A stretch of 64,000 bases of DNA from an uncultured Bdellovibrio sp. Lineage in GTDB: Bacteria > Bdellovibrionota > Bdellovibrionia > Bdellovibrionales > Bdellovibrionaceae. Under the pieces are notes generated by a model. It searched no databases. It was not told the DNA's origin and worked only from the letters and a program-made list of their open reading frames with translations. Below, piece by piece: positions 27,890-49,424 of this stretch (positions are counted from its first letter, which is position 1; each line of letters starts with the position of its first letter). A program made the translations under genes and the position numbers. The stretch lies in the NCBI GenBank assembly GCA_963932905.1, contig CAWVRN010000003.1:1-64000 (forward strand). The letters run 5' to 3'.

Positions 27890-29113
27890 TGTAGAAGTTT
27901 AGACTTGATCTGACAGTCGCCCATTTGTTCAGCAAGTTATTTGTACTGTCAGTTTAAGTTTAAGCCGAGATCCTTTTGTCTCCAGATTTTAATTCCGTCA
28001 ATAAAAGTTTCCATCGGTGTTCTTCCATTGCACATTTTACCTTGGTGAGTTCTCCTTTCGTTATATTCTATCATCCACTGACCTAAATCAGTTTGTAAAT
28101 CGTCCATAGTTTTATAAATTTTCTTTCTAAAAGTGATTTGATAAAACTCTTGTAAAATTGTTTTATGAAATCGCTCACATATTCCATTGGTTTGTGGATG
28201 AGCAACTTTAGTTTTCGTGTGTTCTATATCATTGACGCCTAAATAAAGTTGGTAATCGTGTTGATCGACTTTGCCACAAAATTCAGTACCACGATCGGTA
28301 AGGACTCTAAGCACTGGCACTGAGTAGCTTTCAAAGAACGGCAGCACCTTGTCGTTGAGTAAATCCGCAGCGGTAATCGGTGTTTTTTGATTGTAAAGTT
28401 TGGTGAATGCAATTTTGGAGTAAGTATCGACAAAAGTTTGCTGATAAATTCGTCCAACACCTTTAATTGTGCCAACGTAAAACGTGTCTTGCGATCCCAA
28501 GTATCCTGGATGAGCGGTTTCTATTTCACCACTAGCGATGTCGTCGTCTTTCTTGCGCTCTAATGCTGCAATTTGAGCTTCCGTATAGACAATTCCTTCA
28601 GTGGCACTCTTGGCTTCTAGCGCTGCTAGCCGCTTTCTAAACTTTTCTAAATCATGGCGTAGCCAAATGCTCCGAACTCCTGCCGGAGAGAGGAAGATTC
28701 CGTTTTTACGAAGTTCATTGGCAGCGCGCTTTTGCCCGTAAGCGGGAAAATCAATAGCCATTTTTAAAACGCTGGACTCAATTGTTTCGTCCACTCTATT
28801 TTTGAAGTTTGGCTTCTTGCGAGTTCTCTCGTTAAGCGCTTCGATCCCACCTTCGTCTTTTAGCTCTTTATATCGGTAAAATGTGTCACGAGAATAGCCC
28901 ATTACTTTACAGGCCTTAGAAACATTTTGTAATTCCTCAGCTAAATTCAATAGTCCGAGTTTGTTTGAAATGATTTTTTGTTGTATTGTTTGCATGCTCA
29001 GTTATCCTTTAGGGGATTGGCCCCTTTTGTTTGTTAATGCCAAACAAAAGGGTAACTGAGTTTTCCACATCTTTTCTATTCCAGATGTGTCAGATCAAGT
29101 CTTAACTTCTACA
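27890..29113 (-). mobile_element. IS481-family insertion sequence (1224 bp)
   Basis: 26-bp terminal inverted repeats with TGT...ACA ends (27890-27915 and 29088-29113, 25/26 identical) around one transposase. Confidence 0.93.
27949..28995 (-). CDS. IS481-family DDE transposase
   Basis: N-terminal HTH (NVSKAC..MG.SR.TFYR), QDT, TDRG.EF, PQTNG..ERF. Confidence 0.95.
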   Translation of the reverse strand: MQTIQQKIISNKLGLLNLAEELQNVSKACKVMGYSRDTFYRYKELKDEGGIEALNERTRKKPNFKNRVDETIESSVLKMAIDFPAYGQKRAANELRKNGIFLSPAGVRSIWLRHDLEKFRKRLAALEAKSATEGIVYTEAQIAALERKKDDDIASGEIETAHPGYLGSQDTFYVGTIKGVGRIYQQTFVDTYSKIAFTKLYNQKTPITAADLLNDKVLPFFESYSVPVLRVLTDRGTEFCGKVDQHDYQLYLGVNDIEHTKTKVAHPQTNGICERFHKTILQEFYQITFRKKIYKTMDDLQTDLGQWMIEYNERRTHQGKMCNGRTPMETFIDGIKIWRQKDLGLNLN

Positions 29114-30093: not shown

Positions 30094-31134
30094 ATTTCAG
30101 TTCCAGCCGATGAATTAGAGAATAGAGAGCTAAACGATGATTGGATCGTAGTTAGCAAGATCAATAAGAATCCAGTCGGCACCGGTGGTGCGTTCTCAAT
30201 TCCGTATATTGTGAAAAACAAAAAAACGGGAGAAGAAGCTTTCCTCAAAGCCTTAGACTTCTCGTCGTCGGCCCAGTCATCCGACAGGCTGACCGCCTGG
30301 AAAATTTTAGTTGAAGCATATCTTTTTGAGCGGGATTTGCTCCTAAAATGCAAAACCAAAAAACTTAACAATATTTCTACACCAATTGCACATGGCGACG
30401 TTTTCGTTCCGGGATATTCGGAGTTTGGAAGGGTTTACTACTTAATTTTTGAAAAGGCCGAAGAGGGAGACGTTCGTAATTATCTTAGTAAACCTAGTGC
30501 TTTCGAGTTACGTTGGTGTTTCGCTAGCTTACATAGCATTGCTGTGGGTATTAGACAGTTACACACAAATGGGATTGCACATCAGGATTTAAAACCGTCA
30601 AATGTTCTCATCATGAATACTGAAAACACAAAAATTTCGGATCTTGGCCGAGCCTCCGATTCAGTCACTCCCTCTGAAAATGACAATCGTATGGTAGCGG
30701 GAGATCGAGGCTACGCTCCAATTGATCTTTGGTTTGAAGAGATTCCTATTAAGGGATTTGAAAGGAAATTTTTAACCGATATCTATTTATTGGGAAGTTT
30801 GATTTACTTTTTTTTCACTGGTGTAAGTGCGAAACAAGCTCTTTATTCGAAATTAACTGCCGATCAAAGAATTAATCGAGAAATGAAATTTAACGAACTC
30901 CTTCCTTATTTAAGAGACGCTTTTGCATTAACTCTTGAAGACCTTCGAACGGAAATTAAAAAGGTTGCTCCAGATTTCGTTGAAGACTTGATTGAGCTCG
31001 TAAAACAACTTTGCGAACCCGACCCCTCTCAGCGCGGAGATCCCAAATGGCAGCGCACACTCACTCCAACTTATGATTTGCAGAGAGTCATTTCAAAACT
31101 AAATATAATGGTTAGTACGGTTAGGCGTAATTAA
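30094..31134 (+). CDS. Hanks-type Ser/Thr protein kinase (start probably non-canonical ATT at 30094)
   Basis: Gly loop GTGGAFS upstream of the tracked GTG; AFLKA, HQDLKPSN, DLG, GDRGYAP, DIYLLG. Confidence 0.85.
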   Translation: MSVPADELENRELNDDWIVVSKINKNPVGTGGAFSIPYIVKNKKTGEEAFLKALDFSSSAQSSDRLTAWKILVEAYLFERDLLLKCKTKKLNNISTPIAHGDVFVPGYSEFGRVYYLIFEKAEEGDVRNYLSKPSAFELRWCFASLHSIAVGIRQLHTNGIAHQDLKPSNVLIMNTENTKISDLGRASDSVTPSENDNRMVAGDRGYAPIDLWFEEIPIKGFERKFLTDIYLLGSLIYFFFTGVSAKQALYSKLTADQRINREMKFNELLPYLRDAFALTLEDLRTEIKKVAPDFVEDLIELVKQLCEPDPSQRGDPKWQRTLTPTYDLQRVISKLNIMVSTVRRN

Positions 31135-32651
31135 TGAGTTTCAAAAACATTTTTAGTGGAACCCGACATATGATTCCTCGATGGTTCACCTATCCTACGG
31201 CGAGGTGGCTCGGGCTCCTTAATGGAGTGCAACCTCCAAAGGACATTCTCTCGTCGATTGACTTTGAACGATCAAAGGCTGACTGGTTAAACAACAACGA
31301 CAAGCTGATTCATGCAAATGAAGCTGTTGGAAATTCGATAATGTTAAATCGCTTCAACGATCCTAGCATAAATGAAGCAGCAAAATTTGTTTTGACCAAT
31401 GAAAACGCTAGTCAAATTGCTAGAACAATGGCTAATGACTATATTTTCTATTCCCAAGGCGGCGTGGAGCCCACTCCAGAAACTTATTTACCTCAAGCTA
31501 CTCCTGCTTATTTTAAAATTATCTCTAATATTAAAAAACAGTTAATCGAATATCCCAAAAACTATATTAAATGGGCCGAACTTTCCTTTTTTTACGCTAC
31601 AATCGGGCAAACAGAAAAAGCTGAAAAATGCATGGATATTGCCATATCTGGAAATTCAGAAAATAGGTTCATTTTGCTTTCAGCCTCAAGATATTTTATG
31701 CATTCCGAGAATCAGGACAGAGCTCTTTATTACTTAAGAAAGGCGGCAAACAAATTAACTGATCCATGGGTTATATCGGCTGAAATTGCGATTTCAGATA
31801 CTTTGGGTCTTGGCCCAAAAACATATAAACAAGGCAATCTTCTTTTGGAAAGTGATAAGATTACCGACTTTCATAAATCGGAACTTGCTAGTGCAATCGG
31901 AACAATTGAAAGCAAATCCGGTCTGATAAAATCAGCAAGAAAATATATGCGAACGGCATTAATTAATCCGACTGAAAATTCAATTGCTCAAGCCGTATTC
32001 TTAGCTCCAAATTTGGGGGTTTTTGACCTCGGCCAATCTTTGCTAAATAGTAAAGTATCATTTGAAGCGGAATCTAGATTAAGCTTTCAAGCCGGAAAAT
32101 ACCGCGAGTCACTTGAACTGGTTAAAAAGTGGCTAAAGTTTCAACCATTCAGTTCTCGACCAGCTATTATGGGATCATATATAGCTTCCGTTGCTCTAGG
32201 TGATTTCGAGGAAGGAATTAACATTGCGAAAATTGGGCTTCTCACATCTCCTCATGAATTTATGCTTTTAAACAACTTAGCATTCTCGCTCATATCATTG
32301 GATCGGTTGCCAGAGGCCGAAGAAGTTTTAAATCGTATGCCCTCAACGATTCAGATCAAGGCCGAGTCAGCAGTCTTTCTTGCTACCCAGGGAGCTTTTG
32401 AATTCCGAAGCAATCGTATAGAACGCGGAAGAGAACTTTATCAAGAATCTATTTCTATATTTACGGAGCTTAAAGATGAAGTTTCGAAAGCTTTGGCAAC
32501 GTATTTTTGGAAAAGAGAAGAGAGTCGAGTCAAAGATGATAGTTGGATTGATAAAGTAAATTACGAGCTCAATCAGCTTCTAAAAAAGACCGGATTGGAC
32601 GAAGTAAAGTTATTCGTAAATGAAAATGAGAAAAAACCGCAATCAGAATAG
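31134..32651 (+). CDS. TPR-repeat protein translationally coupled to the kinase
   Basis: TAATG overlap; repeated TPR-like units (NNLAFSL..L....EA, G.....G...Y..SI). Confidence 0.75.
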   Translation: MSFKNIFSGTRHMIPRWFTYPTARWLGLLNGVQPPKDILSSIDFERSKADWLNNNDKLIHANEAVGNSIMLNRFNDPSINEAAKFVLTNENASQIARTMANDYIFYSQGGVEPTPETYLPQATPAYFKIISNIKKQLIEYPKNYIKWAELSFFYATIGQTEKAEKCMDIAISGNSENRFILLSASRYFMHSENQDRALYYLRKAANKLTDPWVISAEIAISDTLGLGPKTYKQGNLLLESDKITDFHKSELASAIGTIESKSGLIKSARKYMRTALINPTENSIAQAVFLAPNLGVFDLGQSLLNSKVSFEAESRLSFQAGKYRESLELVKKWLKFQPFSSRPAIMGSYIASVALGDFEEGINIAKIGLLTSPHEFMLLNNLAFSLISLDRLPEAEEVLNRMPSTIQIKAESAVFLATQGAFEFRSNRIERGRELYQESISIFTELKDEVSKALATYFWKREESRVKDDSWIDKVNYELNQLLKKTGLDEVKLFVNENEKKPQSE

Positions 32652-35082: not shown

Positions 35083-38000
35083 ATGTATCGCTTAACGGCT
35101 ATCGCTATTCTATTGTTTGCTCAGTTCGTCCTTGCTCAAAACACCGCAGATCAGGTTGTGGTCTTTCCTGATAAGACCTACCGTGGCTCCTTCAAATCGG
35201 TCAATCAAGTTACCGAAACAATTAGCGTCACTTCAGACGCAATCAAAAATGACTTTATCATTAAGATGAAAAACGCCGACGGTCAGAATCACGAAAATGT
35301 CGTCTGCGCGGGCGGACTACTTCAAAAATGTTCCTGCGGTCTTAAGAACCTTGCTAATTTACTTTATCGCACTTTTTTCAGAGTTGAATATGCTGAAATC
35401 ACTTGGAACGGCAAAAAGGTCGTCGATGCGAATACGTTTAATAGAAACGTAGCCACTCTTTCTGTTTCTGTAAAACCGGAGCTAAGCAATTCGCTCGTGA
35501 TCAAATATAAAGGACTATTTACTTCGTATTTCTCACTTGGAATATATCGCCCGTCTTCACCGAAGGACACTACTGCGCCGACTATTTTGACCCAATTACG
35601 TAGTAATACGTTCACAAATCAAAAATCGGCGAATGTTGAAATTCAGGATATTTCCAATGTCACATCCACAGTTTCCATCAATGGGGCCGTAGTTAAATCG
35701 TCAACGGCAAAAAGTTTTACTTTCGATCTTGTTAACGGAAACAATAACATTGAAATCAAATCTCAAGATCAGTTTAACAACATAGCTTCGCCTGTTGTGA
35801 TTTCAAATGTAGTTTTGGATCAATCAAACCCAAGTATTTCTCTGTCATCGAGCGATCCGGTTTATGTTAACTCACTACCGAAAACTTTAGCTGCCCAGTT
35901 CATATCAAACGAGCCTTTGAAATCGCTTCTTGTGAATTCAAATCAGGTGTCGCTTAATGAGAGTGGAAAGATTGGCGTCTATAATTTTAGCATTTTGCAA
36001 TCTGGCGCCAATAGTGTCGCTGTTCAAGCGACAGATCTAGCGGGAAATGTATCAAATCAAAATTTATCGCTTTCGGTAATTCTCGACAACACCTCCCCTG
36101 CAATTTCTTTTGGAATAGCTGAGGGAACACTAACTAATCAAAGCTTAATCGTAATCCCCATCAAAATCACAGAGGCCAATGATGTTCACTCGATAATAAA
36201 AGTTAACGGCGTGGATGTACTCAGAACCGGCGCCAAGGAATTTGATTTCGAAGCTAGTCTTTTATTAGAAGGTGAAAATCAAGTTCAAGTTGAAAGTACC
36301 GATATCGCTGGAAACATTTCACAATCACTAATTTTGAAAATTATAAAAGATTCAACACAACCCGTTCTTTCAAATATCCAGCCCGCGAACAATCGCAGAA
36401 TTGATCGTCTTGTTTTTTCAGTTACAGGCCGTGCAAATGAAAAACTGGATCAAATAAATGTCAATGGTCTGGCGCTAACTTTAGATGCAAACAGAGTCAA
36501 CTTTTCGGGAACCTATGTGGCTGCTAAAAACGGTACAGAAGAACTTTTGTTTTCCGCAACTGATCTTGCTGGAAATAAAACCGAAATTAGAAATACTATT
36601 CAAATCGACAATCGTTTATTGATACCGGAACTTGTGTCTATTAGCCCTAGTCCAGATCGGCTGCATTTAAATATAATAGGCGCGGCAGGGAGCGTAAGAT
36701 CTGAAATCAGCGTGAGCGCCTCTAGTGGACTTTTGGGATTTTATTCTGATAGCACGACGTCAACTGTAGATGGCAGTTTTATTTTAAAATTACCTCCATT
36801 TTCGACTGCAACTTTAAAAGTTAAAGATCAGCAAAATAACGAGGAGACAACTCTAACTCTTTCTTACGAAATCGGCACTCGACTGTCCGGCATTATCAAA
36901 GACACGGACGGAAATCCACTTCCGGGAGCCACTATTAGAATTTCTTCTTATGACGGCAGTGTCCTATCAGATAGCTCTGGGGTATTTAGCATTGCTAGCC
37001 CGGCCACTGGTGATCAGACTCTAACTGTTGACGGTTCTACAATTGCGCAATCAGTTACCGGACCTAGTCGTAAATTTTCAACTACACAAATTCAAATTAA
37101 CATCGGACTAGGCCAAGAAAACGTTTTAGAGCGGCCAATTTATCTAGCACCGCTAATTCTTAATGGCAGCGAAACGACAATCATTGCTGGAGAAAGTGCG
37201 ACAGTAAAAAATCCCCTAGCGGCCGGAGTGCAATTAGATATTCCTGCCAATTCGACGGTTTTTCCAGGTGGAGGTAGCAGCGGCTCTATAAACATTGCAA
37301 GTATAGACGCGAACAAATCCACTGTTCCAGTTTTAGCAAATGTAGTTCCAGATAAAGTAATCGCATTAGAACCTTCTGGATTAAAATTCCAACAAAGAGT
37401 TCCAGTAACGTTGCCAAACGATAGCGATTTTCCTGCTGGCGTAGAGATGTTTATTCTCTCGATGGATAGCTCAAAAGGAATTTGGGAAGTCGACGGCATG
37501 GCTAAAGTTTCTGAAGACGGAAGGTCCATTGAAACCAAACCTGGGCAAGGAATTTCACATTTTAGCTTGATCTATGCCGCCCCAGCAAAACCGGTTTTAG
37601 CAGCGGTAGACAATCCTAAACAAGCAGGTATTGATATTTCTCAAGGCTCGTTGAGCAGTTCGTTCAGTTTACCTTCATGGAAATCTCTTGGCGTAAGCAT
37701 CGCTCCAAGCTTGATTTACAAAAGTAATTGGGCAAACCCTACAGCCTATGTTTCAAATTATATTGATGTTCCTCGACAGGAGTACACCGCATCCTACGCA
37801 GATTCAGGCTCCGTTTCGTCAATTGAAGCGATAAAGGGTCGATATTGCGACACCGTTTTAGGTGTCCCGGTGAAATGCTACAATACCTATGATGAATACG
37901 TTTTGAGTGTAGAGTATAAAAACACTGCCGAAGTTTCGACTTGGTATCAACCAGATTCTATTAAGTCCCAGTTTTTTATTGGCGACCTGGCCTCAAACAT

Positions 38001-41000
38001 TATCGAGTATATCGACAATTCAACGCCGAACTATGAAAATACGGGTTCATCAAATATTCCAGGATCACTTTTTGCTGGCGGTTTTGGCTCCAACATTACA
38101 AACTACACAGGCATTCCCAATCGATCCATGATTTCCTATGCCGTCCCATTGAAATATTCAACTACGGGCGAGTATCTGCCTTCTGGGGTTTACCCGTCAC
38201 TTGCTAGATACGAATTGAAAATAAAAAACCTTACGATTCGTTCATCTACTGAATACGAAGCGTACTCAGTGAAATTTGTTGATGACAAATTTAGAGAAGC
38301 AAATCAATCGAACGTAATATTGACAAATAAATCGACTACGACAAAGTCGTCGCAAGTTCTAGATCAAATATTTCCTTCCGACGTTTTGGCTCCGTTGTTA
38401 GTGCAAAATAAAGTCAAATCACCTGCCGGACGTGGTTGGCATCTTGGACTTACGCAAAATATTCTAAATCCAGGCGGAAATCGTGTTCTAGTTGAAGAAG
38501 CGAGCGGAGAGCTATCAACTTATTCCGTCAGCAATACAATCTCTACCATTTATAACTCATCCACGACAGGCGTAGATACAAAATCAGCAATAGATTTTTC
38601 TCAGTGGCCAAAAGCAGTGGCGCTCTACCGTAACTCTTCAAAGGAAAACTATTTTGTTGAACTCGATCTATCAAGTTCTTCGCCGATCTTATCAACTTTA
38701 GAGAAAATTGAACAGTACTCTGGGTACTTTACCTATAGTCCATATTATACTGGGGCATGTAGTGCTGATCCTAGCTCTTCAAGTCCAATAAGCGATGTAA
38801 CCTATAGCTATAAAACTCAAAATGACCCAACATCCATAATTAGATTTCAAAATGGCGCGATATATGCCGTTAGTCAGCGAGATCATTCGCTTTACCAAAT
38901 CCAAAGCGGAGTTAATACCTATCTAATTGAAAATAGAACTGCGGCATTGCCGACAAATAGCGCTAAAACAGTGGCGCAGATTGAAAGTGAATGTCTTTCT
39001 ATATCGGGTCAGCCTTGTGATACTAGAGTCAAGAGAACGTACTCATGTGCAAATCCTGATGATACAGAATTTCCTTTCCGATCAATTAGCTTTTATAGAC
39101 CACAGCAGGCTATCACCCAAGGTATACCTGGTTCAGTACGCGGAGAATTCACAAATGCATTTGCAAGTACTCTAGCCCAAGCCGATCTTAACAATCCACA
39201 AGGTATGGTCGTATCTCCAGATGGCTTTTTAGTTATTGCCGACTCTGGTAACAATATGGTTCGTAAAGTCGATCTGACAAACAACCAAATTTCGACCATT
39301 GCGGGTGATGGCTCTAATATCGATCAGATAAACGAGGATTCCCCACTCGTATCGGGAATATTCCACCCACAAAGTGTCGTGTATGACCTTAACAAAAATT
39401 TATACATACTAACTGAAAATGGTTATATCCGCAAAATCAACTCGCAAGGAAAAATTTCGAGCTTTGCCGGCTTACCGCTTTCTCAAGGCGGCGTGCGATC
39501 AGATCAAGCCCCGATGCAGCAGATGGCATTCAATCACCCTCACGGAATGGTGTTTGATAATGTAAATCAGTATCTTTACGTGGCCGACACGGACAATCAT
39601 CGAGTGGTGCGAATTGATCTAAAGACCCAAATGGCTACTAACGTTGCCGGTGGAACGTGCATAGATTCTGAGGTATCCGATAACGGCCCAGCTCTAGGTA
39701 CGTCATTATGTAGTCCAAAATATATTGGTTTAGATTCTAACCAAAATCTTATTATCGTCGATTCAGGGCACAATCGAATCAGAAAAGTAAATTTTAATTT
39801 CTCAACCACTGGAGCACTTGCATTTTTACCTTCAGCGAAGGACGGTTCAAATTTATATAGATACAATGACGGCTCATGGTCTCGCACCTTAAGAAATGGG
39901 ACTATAACTTATTTTAATATCGACGGCCAAGAAATTAAGACGATCGACAGGGTCGGAAACGCAATAAGCTATGAGTACAATAGCCAGAAAAAGCTAACTA
40001 AAATTACGGATGCGGTAAATCAAGTTACGGTACTAAATTACTCAGGTGATTTGCTCTCATCAATCACTGACCCAGCTGGTCGAACTACGTCTTTTAACGT
40101 CAGTTCTGGAAAATTAACCTCCGTTACTTTTCCAGACTCTTCAGTCAAGTCCTTTGAATACGATGACAACGGTCTTATGACAAAAGAAACCAATCAAAAT
40201 GGATTCTCTAAAAAATATGCATATAACCAGTTTAATCGGTTGGCATCGGTTACTGATGAGCAAAATCAGGTAACAGAAGTAAACGATGTTCTTTCAAGCT
40301 CAATGTCAAATAACTATACTGGTGGAAATGTAGGACAACTTAATAATCAAGGTTCAGGAGCTTCTCAGCTTCACGATAGAGTGGTCGACGCAAAAAGTAT
40401 CGAAACTGAAATCACCAAAGATTTCAACGGCCTTATAACAAAAATAAAAGATGGAAAAGGGCAAATTACATCAATTGAACGAGATATCGAAGGATACACA
40501 AAGAAAGTAGTATTCCCGGATTTATCAGAAGTGACTTTAGAATATGATCCAGCAACCAAAGATCTTCTTAAAACGACCGATACTGGAACGGGAATTAGCA
40601 AGTCTCGTTTATTCAATTCGTTTGGACAAATAGTTTCTATAACTGATGGAAGAGGTTTTACTCAAACTAGACAATACGATCCAAGCACAGGTTTGTTGAC
40701 CCAAGAAACACTACCTAGTTCGCAAATTTTTAAATATACGTACACGAACAGTGGACAGCTCGCTTCAACTACCAAAGCCCCCATCGTCGGTGTCAATAAC
40801 ATCACTCTTTTTGAATATGATTCATTTGGAAATAAATCTAGAACCATTTTTCCAGATGGCAGATCAGAATCGTATCTTTACGACAACGCAGGAAACATGA
40901 CCCAAAAACTATTGCAAATAAATGCGAGCGTACAGGAAATCACAAAATATCAATATGACAAATTTAACCGCATTGTGAAAGTGATCTCGCCGAAAAATGA

Positions 41001-43008
41001 AGTAACCGAGTATAAGTATACTCAATCAGGTCAAATTTCGTACATTAGAGACCCTTTAAGCAACGAAACAATATTCAACTACAATGAAAAAGGTCTGCTC
41101 ACTAATAAGGTAGAACCGGGAAACAAAATATACAATTTTAACTATGATGCAAACGGCAACTTGGTATTCGAGTCCGATCCCAATGGCGTTACAAAGACTT
41201 ATACTATTGACGAACTCAATCAAATTGTAAAAATTAATTTGCCCGACGATGAATACAACTTTGCGTACTCAGCGAAAGGAGAATTGACTCTTGCTTCAAA
41301 TAACACCGCCACAATTTCGCAAAGTTTTGATACAAAGGGACGAATAGTATATAGCTCGACGAGCCTTGCCCCGAGTGTCGGCAACTACCCAAATGTTCCT
41401 ATTTCATATACGTACGATAAAAACGGAAATCGAGAAACTTTGAGATCAAGCGTTATCGGCTTAGATTATTTATACGACCAAACCAATCGCCTTGTAAGAA
41501 TTGACAATTCGAGCGGCGATCAATTTGCTTTTGAATATGACAATTCTAATCGCCTTACCAAAATTATGCGTCCAGGCACAATTACAGCTATTTCATATAA
41601 TTCTGACGATTCATTGGCCGCGATTGCTCACTCTAAACAAGGTGGCTTAATTGATCAAAATGTCTATTCGTACGATCAAAGGAACCTAACCACTCAAAAA
41701 AGAACAATCGCTGGAAGTGTCGACTATGGATATGACACTAACGGCCAACTTGTGTCTGCTAATTCTAATACCATAAGTGAAATCTTTTCGTACGATGAGA
41801 TTGGAAATCGAACTTCGGATAAAGTGGGCGCTTACACTTACGACTCTACTAAGCAAAATTTATTGAGGACATTGAGTAACGCCTACGCTAGTGACAACAA
41901 CGGAAATATTATTGAAAGATCTTCGCTGACGGGAAATCAAAATGAAAAATATATTTACAATTCATTGAATCAGCTAAAAGAATTGAAGATGTATTCCGGT
42001 TCATCTTTAGTAAAGACAATTAGATATTACTATGATCCCAAAGGTAGACGTGTTTTCAAGTCAGTTATTGACGAAGTGGACGGCTCAAAGTCTTTTTCTA
42101 GAGCCTATATATACGACGGTGAAAAGATTATTGCCGAATTTGACGGGTCTGGAAATCGACTTGCCACATACACTCATTCTGAGATTGGAAACGATGATAT
42201 ACTTGGGCTAGAAGTCTCTAACCAAGGAAAAATTTCAGGACTGGCAAAAAATCCCGGAAAATACTACTATCTAAAGGACCACTTAGGTTCAGTCGATTTG
42301 GTCACTGATAGTTCTGGTATAGTAGTTCAAAAATACTTGTACTCAGCTTTTGGTAAAATTGAAAAGATACTTGATGGAGGTAATACTGCGATCACCGACG
42401 CTCCGGTTGTTAACTCTTCATTTACATTTACTGGAAGAGAATTAGACTATGAATCAGGCTTGATGCACTATCGGACAAGGTATTATAGCCCCGAACTGGG
42501 GCGATTTATTCAGAAGGATTCATACGCTGGAAAAACTGAAAGTCCTGTTTCGATTTCCAACAGATATACATACGTTGAGAATAATCCAATAAAATATAAG
42601 GACCCTTCTGGAAGAATAAAAGATCCGTCAGATTTTACAAACGTGCATGGCGCCTACTGTGGCGCTACTGCAACCGGACAAACGCTAAATCAGTACGGAC
42701 AAATAGTGAATGTAGAACCCGAAGATTCACTCGACTGGGCCTGTATGAGCCATGATGAAGCTTACGCAACTAAGGAAATAGCTTTTAGTTCCCACATTAA
42801 CTACTCTCTAGGTCGAGTGGCGGGTGACTTAAATTTATTCTTGAATGGCGTCGCATTTATAACAATTAAGCCAGTAGATGGACTTCTAGTCGCGGGGGGC
42901 GGCGCGCTTTTTTTAAGCTATAGTTCCACAAGGGCCATCATGATCGATTTGCCTTTAAATTTTTGGTCTTCTTTGTTACAATTTATTGGGATTAAGGTTA
43001 ACCTCTAG
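35083..43008 (+). CDS. Secreted teneurin-like RHS/YD protein with C-terminal phospholipase A2-like toxin domain
   Basis: Signal peptide; Ig-like repeats (D.AGN); carboxypeptidase-regulatory/TTR-like domain; GRGWHL; NHL repeats; YD repeats; RHS core DHLGS, FTGRE.D, RYY.P..GRF..D, NP....DPSG; CTD HGAYCG...DSLDWACMSHDEAY. Confidence 0.9.
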   Translation: MYRLTAIAILLFAQFVLAQNTADQVVVFPDKTYRGSFKSVNQVTETISVTSDAIKNDFIIKMKNADGQNHENVVCAGGLLQKCSCGLKNLANLLYRTFFRVEYAEITWNGKKVVDANTFNRNVATLSVSVKPELSNSLVIKYKGLFTSYFSLGIYRPSSPKDTTAPTILTQLRSNTFTNQKSANVEIQDISNVTSTVSINGAVVKSSTAKSFTFDLVNGNNNIEIKSQDQFNNIASPVVISNVVLDQSNPSISLSSSDPVYVNSLPKTLAAQFISNEPLKSLLVNSNQVSLNESGKIGVYNFSILQSGANSVAVQATDLAGNVSNQNLSLSVILDNTSPAISFGIAEGTLTNQSLIVIPIKITEANDVHSIIKVNGVDVLRTGAKEFDFEASLLLEGENQVQVESTDIAGNISQSLILKIIKDSTQPVLSNIQPANNRRIDRLVFSVTGRANEKLDQINVNGLALTLDANRVNFSGTYVAAKNGTEELLFSATDLAGNKTEIRNTIQIDNRLLIPELVSISPSPDRLHLNIIGAAGSVRSEISVSASSGLLGFYSDSTTSTVDGSFILKLPPFSTATLKVKDQQNNEETTLTLSYEIGTRLSGIIKDTDGNPLPGATIRISSYDGSVLSDSSGVFSIASPATGDQTLTVDGSTIAQSVTGPSRKFSTTQIQINIGLGQENVLERPIYLAPLILNGSETTIIAGESATVKNPLAAGVQLDIPANSTVFPGGGSSGSINIASIDANKSTVPVLANVVPDKVIALEPSGLKFQQRVPVTLPNDSDFPAGVEMFILSMDSSKGIWEVDGMAKVSEDGRSIETKPGQGISHFSLIYAAPAKPVLAAVDNPKQAGIDISQGSLSSSFSLPSWKSLGVSIAPSLIYKSNWANPTAYVSNYIDVPRQEYTASYADSGSVSSIEAIKGRYCDTVLGVPVKCYNTYDEYVLSVEYKNTAEVSTWYQPDSIKSQFFIGDLASNIIEYIDNSTPNYENTGSSNIPGSLFAGGFGSNITNYTGIPNRSMISYAVPLKYSTTGEYLPSGVYPSLARYELKIKNLTIRSSTEYEAYSVKFVDDKFREANQSNVILTNKSTTTKSSQVLDQIFPSDVLAPLLVQNKVKSPAGRGWHLGLTQNILNPGGNRVLVEEASGELSTYSVSNTISTIYNSSTTGVDTKSAIDFSQWPKAVALYRNSSKENYFVELDLSSSSPILSTLEKIEQYSGYFTYSPYYTGACSADPSSSSPISDVTYSYKTQNDPTSIIRFQNGAIYAVSQRDHSLYQIQSGVNTYLIENRTAALPTNSAKTVAQIESECLSISGQPCDTRVKRTYSCANPDDTEFPFRSISFYRPQQAITQGIPGSVRGEFTNAFASTLAQADLNNPQGMVVSPDGFLVIADSGNNMVRKVDLTNNQISTIAGDGSNIDQINEDSPLVSGIFHPQSVVYDLNKNLYILTENGYIRKINSQGKISSFAGLPLSQGGVRSDQAPMQQMAFNHPHGMVFDNVNQYLYVADTDNHRVVRIDLKTQMATNVAGGTCIDSEVSDNGPALGTSLCSPKYIGLDSNQNLIIVDSGHNRIRKVNFNFSTTGALAFLPSAKDGSNLYRYNDGSWSRTLRNGTITYFNIDGQEIKTIDRVGNAISYEYNSQKKLTKITDAVNQVTVLNYSGDLLSSITDPAGRTTSFNVSSGKLTSVTFPDSSVKSFEYDDNGLMTKETNQNGFSKKYAYNQFNRLASVTDEQNQVTEVNDVLSSSMSNNYTGGNVGQLNNQGSGASQLHDRVVDAKSIETEITKDFNGLITKIKDGKGQITSIERDIEGYTKKVVFPDLSEVTLEYDPATKDLLKTTDTGTGISKSRLFNSFGQIVSITDGRGFTQTRQYDPSTGLLTQETLPSSQIFKYTYTNSGQLASTTKAPIVGVNNITLFEYDSFGNKSRTIFPDGRSESYLYDNAGNMTQKLLQINASVQEITKYQYDKFNRIVKVISPKNEVTEYKYTQSGQISYIRDPLSNETIFNYNEKGLLTNKVEPGNKIYNFNYDANGNLVFESDPNGVTKTYTIDELNQIVKINLPDDEYNFAYSAKGELTLASNNTATISQSFDTKGRIVYSSTSLAPSVGNYPNVPISYTYDKNGNRETLRSSVIGLDYLYDQTNRLVRIDNSSGDQFAFEYDNSNRLTKIMRPGTITAISYNSDDSLAAIAHSKQGGLIDQNVYSYDQRNLTTQKRTIAGSVDYGYDTNGQLVSANSNTISEIFSYDEIGNRTSDKVGAYTYDSTKQNLLRTLSNAYASDNNGNIIERSSLTGNQNEKYIYNSLNQLKELKMYSGSSLVKTIRYYYDPKGRRVFKSVIDEVDGSKSFSRAYIYDGEKIIAEFDGSGNRLATYTHSEIGNDDILGLEVSNQGKISGLAKNPGKYYYLKDHLGSVDLVTDSSGIVVQKYLYSAFGKIEKILDGGNTAITDAPVVNSSFTFTGRELDYESGLMHYRTRYYSPELGRFIQKDSYAGKTESPVSISNRYTYVENNPIKYKDPSGRIKDPSDFTNVHGAYCGATATGQTLNQYGQIVNVEPEDSLDWACMSHDEAYATKEIAFSSHINYSLGRVAGDLNLFLNGVAFITIKPVDGLLVAGGGALFLSYSSTRAIMIDLPLNFWSSLLQFIGIKVNL

Positions 43009-43014
43009 AGGTAA

Positions 43015-43641
43015 ATGAAAAAAATAAGATTTATAGCAATATTTTTGACAGTTTTATTTTTCGAGTTGGTTCACGCAAATAGCTTGAAAATAGCCGTTGA
43101 ACGGAACGCTCCATTGATTGGCGGTTCTAGCTCAAATAGAGATTTTCTCCAAAGTTCGGGGACACGCTCTGACATATTTCATGCATCCTACTTTTTCGGG
43201 GAAACAAACGGTTTCTATTTTGGTTTTAACTACTCTAAAGAATATTCTAAATACACACAACCCCAAACCCTGTCTCGACCATTCGCTGAGTTTTCTTCTA
43301 CCTTCACAAGCATTGGCCCCGAGATTGGTTTATGGATACAGCCATCAGAATTAATTGTGCTAGAATCCGGAATCAGTATTGGAACAGGTGGCTTTAAGTT
43401 TAGTAATTCTGAGTTAGGAGTATCAGCCTCACAAAATCCCCTAAAAATTGATTTTCATGTTGGGGCCGTGCATCCTTCTGATATTTTGGGATCACAAATA
43501 CGTCTAGATTTTTTTACTAAATTTGGAGGATATGTTGTTCAGTTGAAAGAATTTACCTATAACGATATTACTTACACACAATCTGAACTTGAGTTGAAAT
43601 ACTACATTTATATTAGTGTCGGATTGGGCCTAAGATTTTAG
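43015..43641 (+). CDS. Small outer-membrane beta-barrel protein, paralog 1
   Basis: Signal peptide, alternating beta-strand pattern, C-terminal beta-signal GLGLRF. Confidence 0.75.
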   Translation: MKKIRFIAIFLTVLFFELVHANSLKIAVERNAPLIGGSSSNRDFLQSSGTRSDIFHASYFFGETNGFYFGFNYSKEYSKYTQPQTLSRPFAEFSSTFTSIGPEIGLWIQPSELIVLESGISIGTGGFKFSNSELGVSASQNPLKIDFHVGAVHPSDILGSQIRLDFFTKFGGYVVQLKEFTYNDITYTQSELELKYYIYISVGLGLRF

Positions 43642-43676: not shown

Positions 43677-44309
43677 TTGGTGAATAAATTCGATCTTTTT
43701 TCGATTATCGGTATAACTCTGATTGCGACCTTGGCTTACTCCGCTGAAGTCAAATTTACTGCTGAAAAAATTATTCCGTTTATAGGGGGTTCTGACTACA
43801 ATAGAGATAATTTACAGAAATCTGGTCTTGTGAAGGTTGATCAGATCGGTGCATACTATTTTTTTGGCGAAGGCAAAGGTTTATATTTAGGCTTAATTAA
43901 CTCCAGTGAAAAAGCTGAATATACACAGTTTGAATCAAACGCCAGGCCGTATGGACATTTTTCATCAAGTTTCTCAAGTTTAGGTACTGATTTTGGCCTC
44001 TGGGTGCAGCCATCCGATATTCTCAGAATAGAAGGCGGCTTGGGGATAAGCCAGGGCACCTTCGAAATATCTGATTCTTCGTCCACAATCTCAAAACAAC
44101 CAAATACTAAAAAGTTAGATGTTCACTTTAGTTTTATATACCCGACTAATTTTTTAAGCCCCGATGTAAATATAGATTTATTTGTAAAGTTAGGATATTA
44201 TAAAGTTTTTATCAGCGATTTTAACTATAATGGGGTATCCTACTCCGCTCCTGAAATAAATTTAAAAACATATCTCTATCTCAGTTTTGGAGTGGGAGTT
44301 AGATTTTAG
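43677..44309 (+). CDS. Small outer-membrane beta-barrel protein, paralog 2
   Basis: Signal peptide; shares P.IGG, YTQ...RP...FSS.F, G.W.QPS with paralog 1; ends GVGVRF. Confidence 0.75.
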   Translation: MVNKFDLFSIIGITLIATLAYSAEVKFTAEKIIPFIGGSDYNRDNLQKSGLVKVDQIGAYYFFGEGKGLYLGLINSSEKAEYTQFESNARPYGHFSSSFSSLGTDFGLWVQPSDILRIEGGLGISQGTFEISDSSSTISKQPNTKKLDVHFSFIYPTNFLSPDVNIDLFVKLGYYKVFISDFNYNGVSYSAPEINLKTYLYLSFGVGVRF

Positions 44310-44396: not shown

Positions 44397-45020
44397 ATGA
44401 TGGCAACTAGACTAGCCGTTATGATACTACTTGCTTGTTACGACTTTTCATTTGGCGGAGCTTACAAGGTGTCTATCCACACCGGCCAACCCGTATTTGG
44501 TGGTTTTTCGAAAGATTCGGAATCATTGAGGAATGGAGGCTCAAAAACTAAAGAATACCAAGTTTCGTATTTGCACGGTGAAAATAATGGCATTTTAATT
44601 GGAGTAATGAGAGGAATTGAATTCAGTAAATATGTTCAATTTACAACTACAAGTCGTCAATATGGAAAGTACTCCTCCAATTATCAGTATGATGGCATTG
44701 CAATAGGATACTGGCATAGTGTTAACCCGACTTTCAGATTTGAAACCGGATTAAATTACGGTGTTGGAAGCTTTGAATTTAATTTAGAAAATATAGACCC
44801 CATCATTCTAAATGATATTAGAATAACAAATTTGTTTTGGAATGGTATCTATCCCTATTCGTTTTTTAACGAGCAATTTAAAATAGATTTCATTGGTTCC
44901 ATGGGACTATACAAAATAAATGTGCCCGACTTTAGCTACAACCAAATTAGTTTTACTCAATCAGATTTAATGCAAAAATTATATTTTTATATGTCAATTG
45001 GAATAGGTTTTAGATTTTAG
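44397..45020 (+). CDS. Small outer-membrane beta-barrel protein, paralog 3
   Basis: Signal-like N-terminus; EFSKY.Q, DF.YN...TQS.L..K.Y.Y.S.G; ends GIGFRF. Confidence 0.72.
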   Translation: MMATRLAVMILLACYDFSFGGAYKVSIHTGQPVFGGFSKDSESLRNGGSKTKEYQVSYLHGENNGILIGVMRGIEFSKYVQFTTTSRQYGKYSSNYQYDGIAIGYWHSVNPTFRFETGLNYGVGSFEFNLENIDPIILNDIRITNLFWNGIYPYSFFNEQFKIDFIGSMGLYKINVPDFSYNQISFTQSDLMQKLYFYMSIGIGFRF

Positions 45021-45224: not shown

Positions 45225-45788
45225 ATGGAACGCTACAACCAAAAAAATAAAGAATTACCAGAGCGCTACTTAGCACGATGGCATTGGTCTCCGAGCTGGG
45301 CGTCGCAGTTAAAGTTTCCAATTATTATAAAAAAAGAATGGAAATCAGATCCATTCTTTGATGGCAGCGGAAGTTTTCACTATCACGCTATTATGACTAA
45401 CGAAGATTTAACTAAAAACAGCTATCAAGATATTTACGAGCGTTACGCTCAGCGGGCCAATATGGAGAACTTCATCAAAGAAGCTAAAATGAACTTTGAT
45501 GCCTATCATTTGCCGTGCTTAAGCTTTAAAGCCAACCATGCATTTTTGTTATTGCTTCTCACTGCGTTTAATCTACTTCGTTGGATTTCAGTGATCACAA
45601 AACCAGAGAAGCCGCACTATGCAAAAAAACTACGTCGTAGTTTTATTTTTCAAGCCGGAAAAATTCAGCTTAGATCCAGACAAGTCTTTCTAAAGGTATC
45701 AGAAAAGTATTTCAAGGAGGTGCAAAGACTAAAAGAGGCATGGGAATCACAGCCGATAAGAATTTTCCCACAGTTCTCCACAGCATAA
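45225..45788 (+). pseudogene. 5'-truncated IS1380-family transposase
   Basis: Y..RA.MEN.IKE.K..F....LP...F.AN, LR...I..AG.....SRQ..L; N-terminal catalytic part missing; candidate right IR ...GTCGAATTTTGGG ending 46031. Confidence 0.75.
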
Positions 45789-46226: not shown

Positions 46227-47381
46227 TTATTTTGCCACCCTCGCGAGTGGCAAAATATCAGCATTCTTCGTCGATGGAACCTTAATTTGCAGCTTGTCCG
46301 TTGTGCCCATGAGTTCAGCACCCGATGAAACAAAGTATTCGTTTGTGGTAGCAATACGAGCGTGCCCAGCACTCTCCATTGTTACTCCTAGCGATACACC
46401 GTCGTTTAACATCAAAGTAATATAAGTTGACCTTAACTGGTGGTGCCGAATCTCTCGAATACCAATTTTTTTACAAAACTCTCGTAAAACTTGAGCTTGT
46501 CGTCCTTTTTCCCAGCCCAGGTTCTCAATCTCTATTACAAATTCGCTTTTAGCTCTTAATTTATATAAGCTCAAAAAAGGCATAATGAAAATAGGTATTG
46601 GAACCATCCTATCATTCCCATTTTTCAGTTTGTTAACAATTCCCTCTTTGGGTTTCTTCTGCCTACATAAGTGAGCCAGTCGCGTATTAAAATCTACATC
46701 CGACCATTTAAGACCAGCTAACTCGCTTCTTCGGAGACCTAAAGTCAAAGTTAGCAGCCAGATTAAAAAGAAAGGATGATTTTCCCGCTGTGCTTCAGAC
46801 AGTAGTTTTTCAACTTCTGAATGATTCAAAGCCGCCTTTTTCCTTTTTGGCCTACGACGATTCTTTAAATGAGCCATTGAATTGACTTTTAAAAAACCAG
46901 CTTCATGGGCAAAAACAAAAATGCATTTTACTTCTTTCTGTATATCATAGGCCCTCGACTCAGAGATCTTGCCTTCCTTAAGACGAGCATCGATATCTGA
47001 TTTAACAAATAACGGAGTAATTAGATCCAGTTTCTTAGAATTCCAATCGACCAAATGTTTTAAGCAGCCATTCTTATTTTCTATCGTTGCTGGACTCATA
47101 CCATTTATATTTTCTGGTGTTCGCTTATTTTGCTCCAACTTTTCTCTGTAATACTCGACAAGCTTCTGCCAGTTCTCAATCGTAGGGATATCCGGTCTTT
47201 CATAACGACACTGATGCCACAGCTGTTTGTATATCAATTCGGCTTTAGGGCGAGACTCTATTCCTCTTTTTTTTCTTTGTACCCTTTCGCCTGTATACTC
47301 ATTAATAGCTTCAGCCATAACCGTGTACACAGTTTTAAAAATTCCAGTCTTTACTTCCTTTTTTGAAATTGAAATTGCCAT
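46227..47381 (-). CDS. int: Tyrosine recombinase/integrase
   Basis: GLRRSEL..L.W, HQLR.TY, GH....T..Y catalytic residues. Confidence 0.93.
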   Translation of the reverse strand: MAISISKKEVKTGIFKTVYTVMAEAINEYTGERVQRKKRGIESRPKAELIYKQLWHQCRYERPDIPTIENWQKLVEYYREKLEQNKRTPENINGMSPATIENKNGCLKHLVDWNSKKLDLITPLFVKSDIDARLKEGKISESRAYDIQKEVKCIFVFAHEAGFLKVNSMAHLKNRRRPKRKKAALNHSEVEKLLSEAQRENHPFFLIWLLTLTLGLRRSELAGLKWSDVDFNTRLAHLCRQKKPKEGIVNKLKNGNDRMVPIPIFIMPFLSLYKLRAKSEFVIEIENLGWEKGRQAQVLREFCKKIGIREIRHHQLRSTYITLMLNDGVSLGVTMESAGHARIATTNEYFVSSGAELMGTTDKLQIKVPSTKNADILPLARVAK

Positions 47382-47699: not shown

Positions 47700-48062
47700 C
47701 TATTGCGAACTCTTCTCTACGGAATCTACTTTTAAATCCGCTTTAGCAGTACTGACAGAATCGCCTTTTGATTTCCGGCGAGGCGGCTTACTCATTGCGC
47801 TTGCAGCAAGCGATTCTCTAAGAGCCGCAATCAGTTCATCGTTGCTGGCGCTTCTTTTTAAATTCTCGCGCACAAGTTTTGATAAATTGGTAAACGCTTT
47901 AATCATAAATGGTTTTGAGGATTCAAAATGATTTGAGCTAAACTCGCGGACAATCCAAGATGTAATCTCCGAAGGGGTTACACTCACCCCTTTATTGGTT
48001 TTTAATTCTTTGGCCATCTGTTTTAAATCATTAGCGGCATCACTCGATAATATGACTCGCAT
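47700..48062 (-). CDS. Hypothetical ICE protein, possible DNA-binding accessory
   Basis: 120-aa ORF in ICE block. Confidence 0.6.
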   Translation of the reverse strand: MRVILSSDAANDLKQMAKELKTNKGVSVTPSEITSWIVREFSSNHFESSKPFMIKAFTNLSKLVRENLKRSASNDELIAALRESLAASAMSKPPRRKSKGDSVSTAKADLKVDSVEKSSQ

Positions 48063-48068
48063 CAGATT

Positions 48069-48539
48069 TTACTTACCACCAGAGGGTTTCTTTTTGTGCC
48101 GCTTTGCCCACTCGGGTCGTTCAACAATAACTGATTCGCAGTGAGCCTCGATCAGCTTGTTTCCCCTGACGTCAGAATCAAAGCACTGCGTTTCAACCCT
48201 TGGTTGAGTCACAAAGTAGTCGCTTGGATCATCTTCACCGCTGGCAATACTCGGACGAGATACATTGAATCGATCTAGATTTAATAATGTTTCCTGACGA
48301 ACACGATTGTCCCTGTCTTCAAGACTTCCATGAATAAAATAACTTGTGGCAAGGCCAACGACCGCTCCAATCATAGCACCGTTGTTTTTGGCGTTATCAT
48401 TGTCCCTATCGATTTGGCTATTAAGTACCGCTCCACTGATGGCACCAATACCGGTACCTAGTAATAATGATTCTTTCATTGTTGCACATCCCATTAGTGA
48501 TATTACACTAATGCCCACTATTTGATTTCGTAATTTCAT
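48069..48539 (-). CDS. Lipoprotein with glycine zipper (possible TraV/VirB7-like or exclusion protein)
   Basis: AGGAG RBS; lipobox LMGC; G.G.GA..GA and GA..GA..G repeats. Confidence 0.65.
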   Translation of the reverse strand: MKLRNQIVGISVISLMGCATMKESLLLGTGIGAISGAVLNSQIDRDNDNAKNNGAMIGAVVGLATSYFIHGSLEDRDNRVRQETLLNLDRFNVSRPSIASGEDDPSDYFVTQPRVETQCFDSDVRGNKLIEAHCESVIVERPEWAKRHKKKPSGGK

Positions 48540-48607
48540 AATTCTCCTTATAGAATTTTAAATTCCTTATATTTAAAACTGACTCTAACTTTTGCTTGTC
48601 AGTTGCT

Positions 48608-48666
48608 CGCTATTTCAATTATTTATAGCGCGTTCACTAGCGGCGCGCCGTAACTACGCCGCTAGT
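48608..48666. repeat. Nested inverted repeats, candidate oriT/ori
   Basis: CGCTAT/ATAGCG, ACTAGCGGCG/CGCCGCTAGT and palindrome CGGCGCGCCG just downstream of the relaxase-like gene. Confidence 0.5.
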
Positions 48667-48678
48667 AAATTCAGCTTG

Positions 48679-49422
48679 TTATTTGATCTCGAATTTGACC
48701 TGATTTCGATTTACCAATGTCATTGATTCAGCTAGTGATCTGACATCCTGAAACAATATAAAATACATTTTAGAATGACCTTCGGGATGTAGCTCTCGCT
48801 CGATCTGCTGAATGGCCCTTACCGTCGACTCGTCTCTGCAAATATAAAAGACAAAATCTATTCCTGTGTTAACATAGTAATAAAGGATCTTGTCCCTATA
48901 TCTATCGATCCACTTCTTAGTTGGCTCATACTCAATAGCCACCGTTTTTAACTTTTCGTTCACTTTTAAAAACGCTGCCGCATCGGATTTCATATCAATC
49001 AGGGGTTTGAGTCTTACGTCAGAATGCAAATGGCCAAAGCATTGTAGCATGTTTTCAGTGAAATACTCTTCCAACATCAATGATTTTGCAAAACGGTTTC
49101 TAATATCTACTAATCCGACATCATGTTCAAAAGTGTAAGAATGAGTCGGCTTCTGGATGAATTCAACCTCAATAGTATTCATTGCATAAGCTAATCCCGA
49201 ATCAGTTAACTCGTAAAAAATGTCACTACGGCTGATTCGCTTTTGCATTTTGTCAGTGATGAATCCGACATTCAATAGCCGCTTTAGGTAATGGCTAAGG
49301 CTTTTTTTCCCAACGCTTGGAAAAATAGCCTGGTGAATTTGATTTCTGGTCATAACTTTGTTTTCAACAAGGCGCTCTAGCAAAAGCCTTTCACGAACAG
49401 TAAAAAGTTGTTTCTTTGCCAA
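48679..49422 (-). CDS. Replication-relaxation (PF13814-like) putative relaxase
   Basis: N-terminal wHTH (LT.RE..LL..L, Y.LT..G), HD, SDA, IEYE...K...RY..K...Y. Confidence 0.75.
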   Translation of the reverse strand: MAKKQLFTVRERLLLERLVENKVMTRNQIHQAIFPSVGKKSLSHYLKRLLNVGFITDKMQKRISRSDIFYELTDSGLAYAMNTIEVEFIQKPTHSYTFEHDVGLVDIRNRFAKSLMLEEYFTENMLQCFGHLHSDVRLKPLIDMKSDAAAFLKVNEKLKTVAIEYEPTKKWIDRYRDKILYYYVNTGIDFVFYICRDESTVRAIQQIERELHPEGHSKMYFILFQDVRSLAESMTLVNRNQVKFEIK

Positions 49423-49424
49423 TT

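Follow-up and report, generated by a model that had tools for sequence, protein, structure and literature searches.

A predicted teneurin-like protein with a candidate phospholipase A2-like toxin domain in an uncultured Bdellovibrio sp.

We analysed 64,000 nucleotides of an uncultured Bdellovibrio sp. (GenBank assembly GCA_963932905.1, contig CAWVRN010000003.1, positions 1 to 64,000 of the forward strand; hereafter the window), in which one intact gene at 35083..43008 encodes a protein of 2641 residues. According to structure models and sequence comparisons, this is a bacterial teneurin-like protein (TLP) with every element of the teneurin superfold in order. The best explanation overall, to which we give a probability of about 0.8, is a Sec-exported TLP that acts as a polymorphic toxin and whose shell would enclose a small C-terminal toxin. 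An earlier note on this DNA, made from its letters alone, had proposed the teneurin order and the enclosed toxin. Structure modelling followed by a Foldseek search recovered both propeller and plug, with TLP and teneurin structures aligned full length (983 residues each), and a C-terminal domain does follow behind an intact RHS cleavage motif.

Bacterial teneurin-like proteins were reportedly published by Jackson et al. in 2018. Raoelijaona et al. (Nat Commun 2026; PMC13018210) defined them by an FN-plug, an NHL domain and a YD shell, and the survey described there found them in 139 genomes from six phyla. In the same account, a domain named TIP lies between the TTR domain and the plug in 96% of TLPs, and the TLP of Bacillus inaquosorum (BiTLP) encloses a C-terminal domain (CTD) of ~14-15 kDa and is followed by an immunity gene (PMC13018210). 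The family itself is thus already known; what would be new for it, judging from sequence, are the phylum Bdellovibrionota, a toxin resembling phospholipase A2 (PLA2) and the likely immunity genes. The features of the gene are as follows, all on the + strand.

35083..43008, +, TLP gene, 2641 residues, intact, a single uninterrupted open reading frame
35083..35136, +, Sec signal peptide of signal peptidase I (SPI) type, residues 1-18, without a lipobox cysteine, read off the sequence
35137..35577, +, N-terminal domain, residues 19-165, without a Pfam match up to E 10
35578..36873, +, Ig-like repeat stalk, residues 166-597 (Pfam)
36877..37158, +, TTR or carboxypeptidase-regulatory-like domain, residues 599-692 (Pfam and fold)
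37168..37587, +, ZU5-like domain, residues 696-835, at the position of the published TIP domain (fold)
37558..37566, +, His826-Phe827-Ser828, predicted self-cleavage site between Phe and Ser (motif conservation)
37591..38457, +, FN-plug, residues 837-1125, with long hairpin insertions, ending in GRGW at 38428-38439 (fold)
38530..39807, +, NHL six-bladed beta-propeller, residues ~1150-1575, including a Cys-rich insertion modelled at low confidence (Pfam and fold)
39850..42339, +, YD-repeat shell, residues ~1590-2419 (Pfam/NCBIfam and fold)
42340..42612, +, RHS-associated core with the aspartyl self-cleavage motif R2466, D2479 and PxxxxD2507-P-S-G (TIGR03696)
42613..43005, +, C-terminal toxin domain, 131 residues, predicted PLA2-like core and hydrophobic tail 2585-2641

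Domain architecture and teneurin-like fold

The part of the protein that identifies it best is the block formed by plug, propeller and shell. In a sequence search of the PDB, which returned 25 distinct chains at E <=0.001, the best matches were the BiTLP entries 9pt5_A (E 1.7e-45) and 9ifo_A (E 1.1e-44), covering residues 1363-2513 of the query; type VI secretion system (T6SS) Rhs effectors came next, and teneurin-4 was found at E 7e-10. Two structure models were then compared with solved structures, each based on 47 homologues picked from 88 non-self matches, with partial-coverage and NHL-only proteins excluded. Model 1 (residues 1085-2284) had a mean predicted local distance difference test score (pLDDT) of 85.5 and a predicted template-modelling score (pTM) of 0.69. 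Its top Foldseek match was again 9ifo_A (E 1.3e-56, 1259 columns), and teneurins aligned over 1300-1400 columns, whereas T6SS Rhs proteins aligned over 820-980 columns, which correspond to the shell alone. VIA-align superposed model 1 on 9ifo_A with Z 29.6 and 983 aligned residues (model 2-1200 against chain 809-1972), and on teneurin-2 (6fb3) with Z 29.0 and likewise 983 aligned residues. The propeller alone matched NHLRC2 with Z 32.2, a root-mean-square deviation (rmsd) of 3.3 and 306 aligned residues.

Model 2 (residues 585-1125, pLDDT 80.4) covered the domains ahead of the propeller. Here the TTR domain (599-692) superposed on that of carboxypeptidase D (5aq0_B; Z 12.2, rmsd 1.5, 80 aligned) and on the TTR domain of teneurin-2 itself (956-1037; Z 11.2). 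The FN-plug (837-1125) matched teneurin-2 1018-1175 (Z 9.1, 141 aligned) and teneurin-3 971-1129 (Z 8.3, 141-142 aligned); at the sequence level, neither Pfam up to E 10 nor a profile search of solved chains returned a match for it. Given that plug, NHL propeller and shell align in one piece with the solved TLP and teneurins, and T6SS Rhs proteins over the shell only, the models argue for a TLP.

Profile searches agreed with most of the domains that the earlier note had named. The signal peptide has a basic start, a hydrophobic core and V-L-A ahead of Q19, and contains no cysteine, as read from the sequence rather than from a predictor. The Ig-like stalk gave Pfam matches to Big_3_3 (299-367), Big_13 (350-420) and Glucodextran_B (three stretches, best 427-509), with a D-x-A-G-N motif repeated at 318, 407 and 494. 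A weak OmpL47-type match in the protein, at 26 bits against a cut-off of 40, had hinted at Leptospira as the source, an idea set aside because the homologues and relatives belong to Bdellovibrionaceae. CarboxypepD_reg was found at 601-657 (E 3.9e-10), NHL at E 1.9e-13 together with TEN_NHL at 1424-1570 (E 3e-8), RHS_repeat in seven stretches (E 1.5e-45) and YD_repeat at E 1.1e-38. The RHS core matched TIGR03696 at 2420-2510 (E 3.8e-21), and its DPSG, residues 2507-2510, lies exactly at 42601-42612, where the note had placed it. The protease residues R2466, D2479 and D2507 are intact, although the first motif reads D-S-Y-A-G and not D-P-x-G. A Pfam scan up to E 10 of the N-terminal domain, the ZU5-like segment and the plug gave no useful match. 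The note had also taken GRGWHL as the plug motif. It is present at residues 1116-1121 with an invariant core (S1113, G1116, G1118 and W1119 of S-x-x-G-R-G-W in 48/48 aligned rows), but it marks only the C-terminal end of the FN-plug (~837-1125) and not the whole plug.

A Cys-rich stretch was observed in the NHL region at window positions 38940-39160 (residues ~1288-1360), where C1304, C1312 and C1322 are conserved and pLDDT falls below 50; an inserted loop held together by disulfides may be present here.

Several results weigh against a straightforward assignment to the TLPs. The best solved chain for the profile of the whole family was the T6SS-linked VgrG-Rhs protein 8qja (1.7e-117), slightly above BiTLP (1.1e-109). 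Upstream of the NHL domain, BiTLP remained unmatched by sequence, whether we searched with a profile of residues 900-1135, with the single sequence of 690-900 or with the whole-family profile. Furthermore, the global superpositions have rmsd values of 12-14 A, so they do not fix the geometry of the plug within the shell, and the shell was modelled to residue 2284 with the plug split between the two models. Since sequence similarity to BiTLP is undetectable upstream of NHL and 8qja is ahead in the family profile, we regard this clade as a distant TLP.

The same profile result could be taken to mean that the protein is an ordinary Rhs effector, or a component resembling the BC part of Tc toxins, that is delivered by a T6SS or a TcA pentamer and resembles teneurins only superficially. 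The shell does score as well against 8qja as against BiTLP, and the fold matches include TcB-TcC fusions (E 1e-22 to 1e-24), although below the TLP and the teneurins. On the other hand, none of the protein's Pfam domains is PAAR or VgrG, SpvB was not matched at E <=0.1 (no search was made for TcA genes), a Sec signal peptide is present, and Rhs effectors align over the shell only. The earlier note had seen no T6SS genes in the window; this extends to the genome, which is 98.6% complete and in which the families VipB, PAAR and Hcp were not found; matches did turn up in the genome of E. coli, used as a control. Without these markers, T6SS delivery is very unlikely, and we consider this explanation as a whole to be hardly credible. 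The genome has four secretins, and a search for GspL found nothing, a combination that does not discriminate between other routes across the outer membrane.

Seen against the known systems, the protein shares features with three groups. With T6SS Rhs proteins (RhsA 7q97, Tse15 8uy4 and VgrG-Rhs 8qja) it shares the YD shell, the RHS core with its cleavage motif, a polymorphic C-terminal toxin, adjacent (here candidate) immunity genes and orphan cassettes, but it has no PAAR, VgrG or clade domain, T6SS markers were not found in its genome, and Sec signal, plug and NHL propeller are all present. With metazoan teneurins such as teneurin-2 (6fb3) it shares the superfold of TTR, FN-plug, NHL and YD shell; in contrast, these are type II membrane proteins with EGF repeats and without a ZU5-like insert. 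Their RHS protease is inactive and their C-terminus lies outside the shell (PMC13018210), whereas a cleavable, enclosed toxin is expected here. The closest likeness is to BiTLP (9ifo, 9pt5), which has the same order of Ig-like repeats, TTR, an inserted domain, FN-plug, NHL, YD shell, RHS core, small CTD and downstream cassette gene, as well as the RHS aspartyl cleavage motif and an H-F-S in the inserted domain. Compared with Gram-negative TLPs, for which an SPII lipoprotein signal is predicted, the signal here is of SPI type.

The ZU5-like domain and N-terminal processing

Between TTR and plug, residues 696-835 form a beta-sandwich, which the earlier note had described as a ZU5-like segment on the strength of its EPSGLKF...TLPN motif (763-779). 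The fold bears this out, with matches to ankyrin ZU5 domains at Z 9.7-10.0, 117-127 aligned residues, rmsd 2.8-3.4 and a Foldseek probability of 1.0; by sequence, the segment gave no Pfam match to ZU5. At the C-terminal end of this fold, just ahead of the plug, His826-Phe827-Ser828 is invariant in 48/48 rows. PIDD and Nup98 cleave themselves at an H-F-S motif, and in CARD8 and NLRP1 the C-terminal end of a ZU5-like domain carries the cleaved S-F|S (PMC3210808). Moreover, the presence of ZU5 autopeptidases in Sec-exported toxins, N-terminal of the RHS repeats, was predicted by Zhang et al. 2012 (PMC3482391). The segment resembles all of these in its ZU5-like beta-sandwich (Z ~10), its terminal H-F-S and its position N-terminal of RHS repeats, and differs from PIDD, CARD8, NLRP1 and Nup98 in that it has no sequence-level ZU5 match, that its solved matches are the non-cleaving ankyrin domains and that cleavage is here predicted.

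The position of the segment is that of the TIP domain, where it ends in H-F-S as the BiTLP row does, and no sequence match to BiTLP was obtained there. In the BiTLP row of the published alignment, H-F-S stands ~41 residues upstream of C719...G723|S724. Across that alignment (PMC13018210, supplementary file 7), a count of strings in the file, not of columns, gave 137 for HFT and 16 for HFS; of the passages shown, all six with HFT and 13 of 16 with HFS share a single column in the TIP domain, where P-W-D-x-N-W comes next. ZU5 is nowhere mentioned in that paper's main text and supplements as available, and the H-F-[ST] column is not discussed in the main text. Its authors state in the peer-review file that a motif for N-terminal cleavage is hard to define (PMC13018210). 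A literature search for ZU5, teneurin and RHS jointly found nothing beyond two papers of 2012.

Autocleavage at Phe827|Ser828 would follow from this comparison, but three points count against it. All listed ZU5 fold matches are ankyrin ZU5 domains, which do not cleave themselves; the ZU5 structures of FIIND, PIDD and UNC5 were not among the best 50 matches listed for model 2, an absence that is no evidence in either direction. The self-cleavages mapped in BiTLP are G723|S724 and after L2144 (PMC13018210), so its N-terminal cut lies ~41 residues downstream of its own H-F-S and not at it. The residues equivalent to this cut are present here as G855-S856. Ser is found at that position in just 21/48 rows, which makes H-F-S the better-conserved candidate in this clade. 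Weighing the motif against these points, we give autocleavage at Phe827|Ser828 an even chance.

A broader idea joins these observations to those on the toxin below. The TIP domain of almost all bacterial TLPs might be a ZU5-type self-cleaving domain that cuts His-Phe|Ser/Thr, and Bdellovibrionota might deploy a battery of TLPs on one export module, one of them with a phospholipase A2 as its payload, which outer-membrane barrels, as immunity proteins, would neutralise. We put this forward tentatively, at somewhat less than even odds.

The C-terminal domain and the barrel-like genes

Behind the RHS core, the CTD contains the motifs Y2525-C-G...G2532 and C2554-x-x-H2557-D2558-x-x-Y2561, followed by D2582 and a hydrophobic tail (2585-2641). 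We take these residues to be the counterparts of three elements of secreted PLA2, namely its calcium loop, the cysteines of its Cys29-Cys45 disulfide and its centre of His48, Asp49 and Tyr52. The nearest clusters in the ESM Atlas were PLA2-like (PF08398; score 0.91, 199/256 features). HMMER searches over 1.84 billion representatives returned 11 relatives; in 9/9 that extend N-terminal of the toxin domain an RHS-core tail precedes it, and the other two begin at the domain. Aligned with the window copy, these gave 12 rows in which G13, Y15, C16, G17, A20, P36, D38, D41, C44, H47, D48, Y51, R68, D72, L75, G79, P87 and G90 are invariant. Sub-threshold Pfam PLA2 matches occurred in the window CTD and in 7/11 relatives.

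The low scores speak against this assignment, as the best Pfam PLA2 score was 17 bits against a cut-off of 32.1 and the family profile reached solved PLA2 chains only at E 0.08-0.35. Compared with secreted and viral-type PLA2 and with Tox-PLA2, the CTD has the Y-C-G...G loop and the C-x-x-H-D-x-x-Y motif in common; it differs from them in lying below all family cut-offs, in having two cysteines only and an extra 55-residue hydrophobic tail, and in having only 11 relatives. PLA2 toxins are a class already known on RHS toxins (Zhang et al. 2012; PMC3482391), and in the main text of the TLP paper (PMC13018210) the words 'phospholipase' and 'lipase' have 0 occurrences. Taken together, the motifs make a PLA2-like lipase the likely identity of the CTD.

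Alternatively, the protein might be mainly a surface adhesin or recognition molecule like the animal teneurins, with the CTD as a membrane-interacting module rather than an active lipase. The long Ig stalk, the NHL propeller and the sub-threshold PLA2 membership would fit, as would the CTDs of the other four TLPs of this genome (described below), which have Gly-rich hydrophobic tails and are not enzymes; the CTD of BiTLP, too, permeabilises membranes (PMC13018210). Nevertheless, the RHS cleavage residues are intact, which they are not in animal teneurins, and the putative calcium loop, the His-Asp dyad, the Tyr and the two cysteines are invariant in all 12 rows. As the downstream cassettes linked to the CTD also suggest a toxic activity that needs to be neutralised, we find the adhesin explanation improbable.

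Directly downstream of the TLP gene are three genes for related proteins, separated by gaps of 6, 35 and 87 nt counted from the TLP stop.

43015..43641, +, outer-membrane beta-barrel-like protein 1, 208 residues, candidate immunity protein, starting 6 nt past the TLP stop
43677..44309, +, barrel-like paralog 2, 210 residues, 39% identical to paralog 1
44397..45020, +, barrel-like paralog 3, 207 residues, 28% identical to paralog 1

All three have signal peptides and a terminal R-F, with 28-39% mutual identity. No Pfam match was found for them. In the ESM Atlas, barrel-like protein 1 scored 0.97 by features to outer-membrane barrel clusters, and its Atlas model had TM scores of 0.65-0.76 to OMP_b-brl clusters. 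A word-indexed search found two relatives outside, and over eight rows only M1, G62, R88, G119, G125 and G205 are invariant in the family. By tblastn, the genome has only four members of the family, three of them at the TLP locus and one on contig C44, where the copy lies 6 nt after an orphan RHS tail whose PLA2-like CTD is 60% identical to that of the window. In a genome from another family of the phylum (G360), an orphan PLA2-like tail has barrel-like genes both before and after it. Downstream of the remaining four TLP paralogs lie genes of other kinds, for the most part lipoprotein-like.

Because the barrels co-vary with the toxin type rather than with the TLP scaffold, as immunity cassettes do, the three genes are, on balance, somewhat better explained as immunity genes than otherwise. 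It counts against this that an outer-membrane barrel is unusual as an immunity protein. The barrels could instead be outer-membrane partners of the toxin that dock its hydrophobic tail in the producer, or translocate it through a pore, or that anchor the protein once exported. Their predicted barrel fold, signal peptides and terminal R-F would suit this role, the strict co-occurrence with the PLA2-like CTD fits any CTD-specific partner, no catalytic His or Ser is conserved among the eight rows, and the step of the TLP across the outer membrane is otherwise without explanation. Yet the four other TLP paralogs share the N-terminus and lack barrel genes, so the barrels cannot be a general exporter; and their placement directly 3' of the toxin, their tandem divergence (28-39% identity) and their occurrence beside orphan tails form the signature of immunity cassettes described for TLPs (PMC13018210). 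A partner role thus seems rather unlikely to us. Relative to published TLPs, both the PLA2-like CTD and the triplicate barrel-like genes downstream set this locus apart.

Under the toxin reading, the protein would be exported by Sec to the periplasm and from there reach the cell surface, with the first 340 residues, nearly the same in all five paralogs, as a likely shared module for export or anchoring. The RHS core would cut after DPSG (residue 2510) and leave a 131-residue toxin loose inside the shell, while the ZU5-like domain would cut itself at Phe827|Ser828, by which the capsule of plug, propeller and shell may be freed from, or loosened on, its Ig/TTR stalk. The toxin would be a calcium-dependent PLA2-like enzyme with one disulfide and a hydrophobic, membrane-seeking tail, directed at the envelope phospholipids of a neighbouring Gram-negative cell, prey or rival, and the three barrel-like paralogs may protect the producer.

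Paralogs, distribution and genomic setting

The genome (4.55 Mb, 98.6% complete) contains five intact full-length paralogs, on contigs C3, C11, C33, C1 and C52; published TLPs likewise occur in several copies per genome, with 'up to four' reported against five here. Compared with the copy in the window, the other four are 76-100% identical over residues 1-165 (signal peptide 76-100%, residues 19-165 77-96%) and 70-92% over residues 166-340, but 33-55% in NHL and YD shell and 11-21% in the CTD. A conserved N-terminus combined with divergent CTDs indicates a shared N-terminal module with swapped toxins, and the pattern points to gene conversion or to a strongly constrained export or anchor module. 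The shared first ~340 residues (window 35083-36100) comprise the signal peptide, the unassigned domain and two Ig-like repeats. The CTDs of the other four paralogs have Gly-rich hydrophobic tails, and orphan RHS-tail cassettes stand beside some of the paralogs. Orphan RHS C-terminal cassettes with small downstream genes of their own were observed at C44:18537-20524, C33:14739-15827 and C1:375512-376636.

Named homologues come from Bdellovibrio, Bdellovibrionaceae, Bacteriovoracaceae and Bdellovibrionales, and the four related genome loci found belong to two Bdellovibrionaceae metagenome-assembled genomes and to Bdellovibrio sp. HCB-162 and HCB274. In our sample of the phylum, 28 of 401 genomes including the source (27/400 others) matched residues 590-1640 at E <=1e-50; within the same family, 8/53 genomes had a match to these residues. 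Among three genomes of the same genus, two were without a match and one had 39%-identical types only. Bdellovibrionota lies outside the six phyla reported for TLPs, and 'Bdellovibrio' has 0 occurrences in the main text and 11 text supplements of the TLP paper (PMC13018210), one further scanned supplement being unreadable. Earlier Bdellovibrio studies mention RHS proteins, namely Bd0109 and four others, which are not called teneurin-like in the text available (PMC3818213, PMC4267844).

The other features of the flanks are the following.

27949..28995, -, insertion sequence transposase with rve integrase core, in the upstream flank
45225..45788, +, DDE transposase fragment, matching only the last third of the Pfam profile DDE_Tnp_1_4
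46227..47381, -, tyrosine integrase, followed by conjugation genes to ~57.3 kb
48679-49422, -, Replic_Relax-like protein
49425-50912, -, FtsK/VirD4-like ATPase
50909-51910, -, TrbI/VirB10
51907-52656, -, CagX/VirB9
54923-57340, -, TraC/VirB4-like protein

Beside the integrase, the conjugation-type set at 47700-57340 looks, from its gene content, like an integrative conjugative element. The earlier note had placed the gene on a mobile islet. Its mobile neighbours are real, with transposase, integrase and conjugation genes adjoining, and the TLP type of the window was not found in the three genomes of the same genus; the islet as such did not hold up equally, as relatives offered no usable synteny around the locus by which its edges could be defined, and GC content is not distinctive there. 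No tRNA was found in the window. The TLP locus can fairly be described as accessory and adjoining mobile genes.

Other observations concern the surroundings. Between the insertion sequence and the TLP gene lie a Ser/Thr protein kinase gene and an overlapping gene for a 505-residue TPR protein (30211-32651, +), and an upstream Hsp70-like gene is conserved in 2/3 genomes of the same genus. At the far end of the window, a Cus-like efflux set (60877-64000, +) consists of an outer-membrane factor, an HlyD-type adaptor that includes a heavy-metal-binding domain, and an AcrB-type pump; none of the 5 relatives searched gave a match to the outer-membrane factor, so this set is probably accessory too. 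Promoter and terminator scans stayed at the level of shuffled sequence, with 32 promoter-like sites against 32.1 and 11 terminator-like sites against 8.2. A search of sequencing runs listed no RNA run and only small shares (<=0.13) from groundwater and wastewater DNA runs, which have no bearing on expression or habitat.

Bacterial TLPs are the ancestors of animal teneurins and have been surveyed only recently. That they are also common in the predatory Bdellovibrionota would fit the published idea linking TLPs to bacteria whose cells are in close contact. Here a predicted lipid-attacking payload and envelope-located immunity candidates come together at one tractable locus, and outer-membrane-barrel immunity, if true, would be a location not described for Rhs-type toxins. 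The invariant His-Phe-Ser provides a directly testable mechanism for freeing the capsule from its stalk, one that may extend to the whole TLP family. If the TIP domain is indeed of ZU5 type, this would explain by what mechanism the N-terminal processing, described as unresolved by the TLP authors, takes place, and the release chemistry of TLPs would be the same as that of PIDD, NLRP1 and the GPS sites of adhesion GPCRs.

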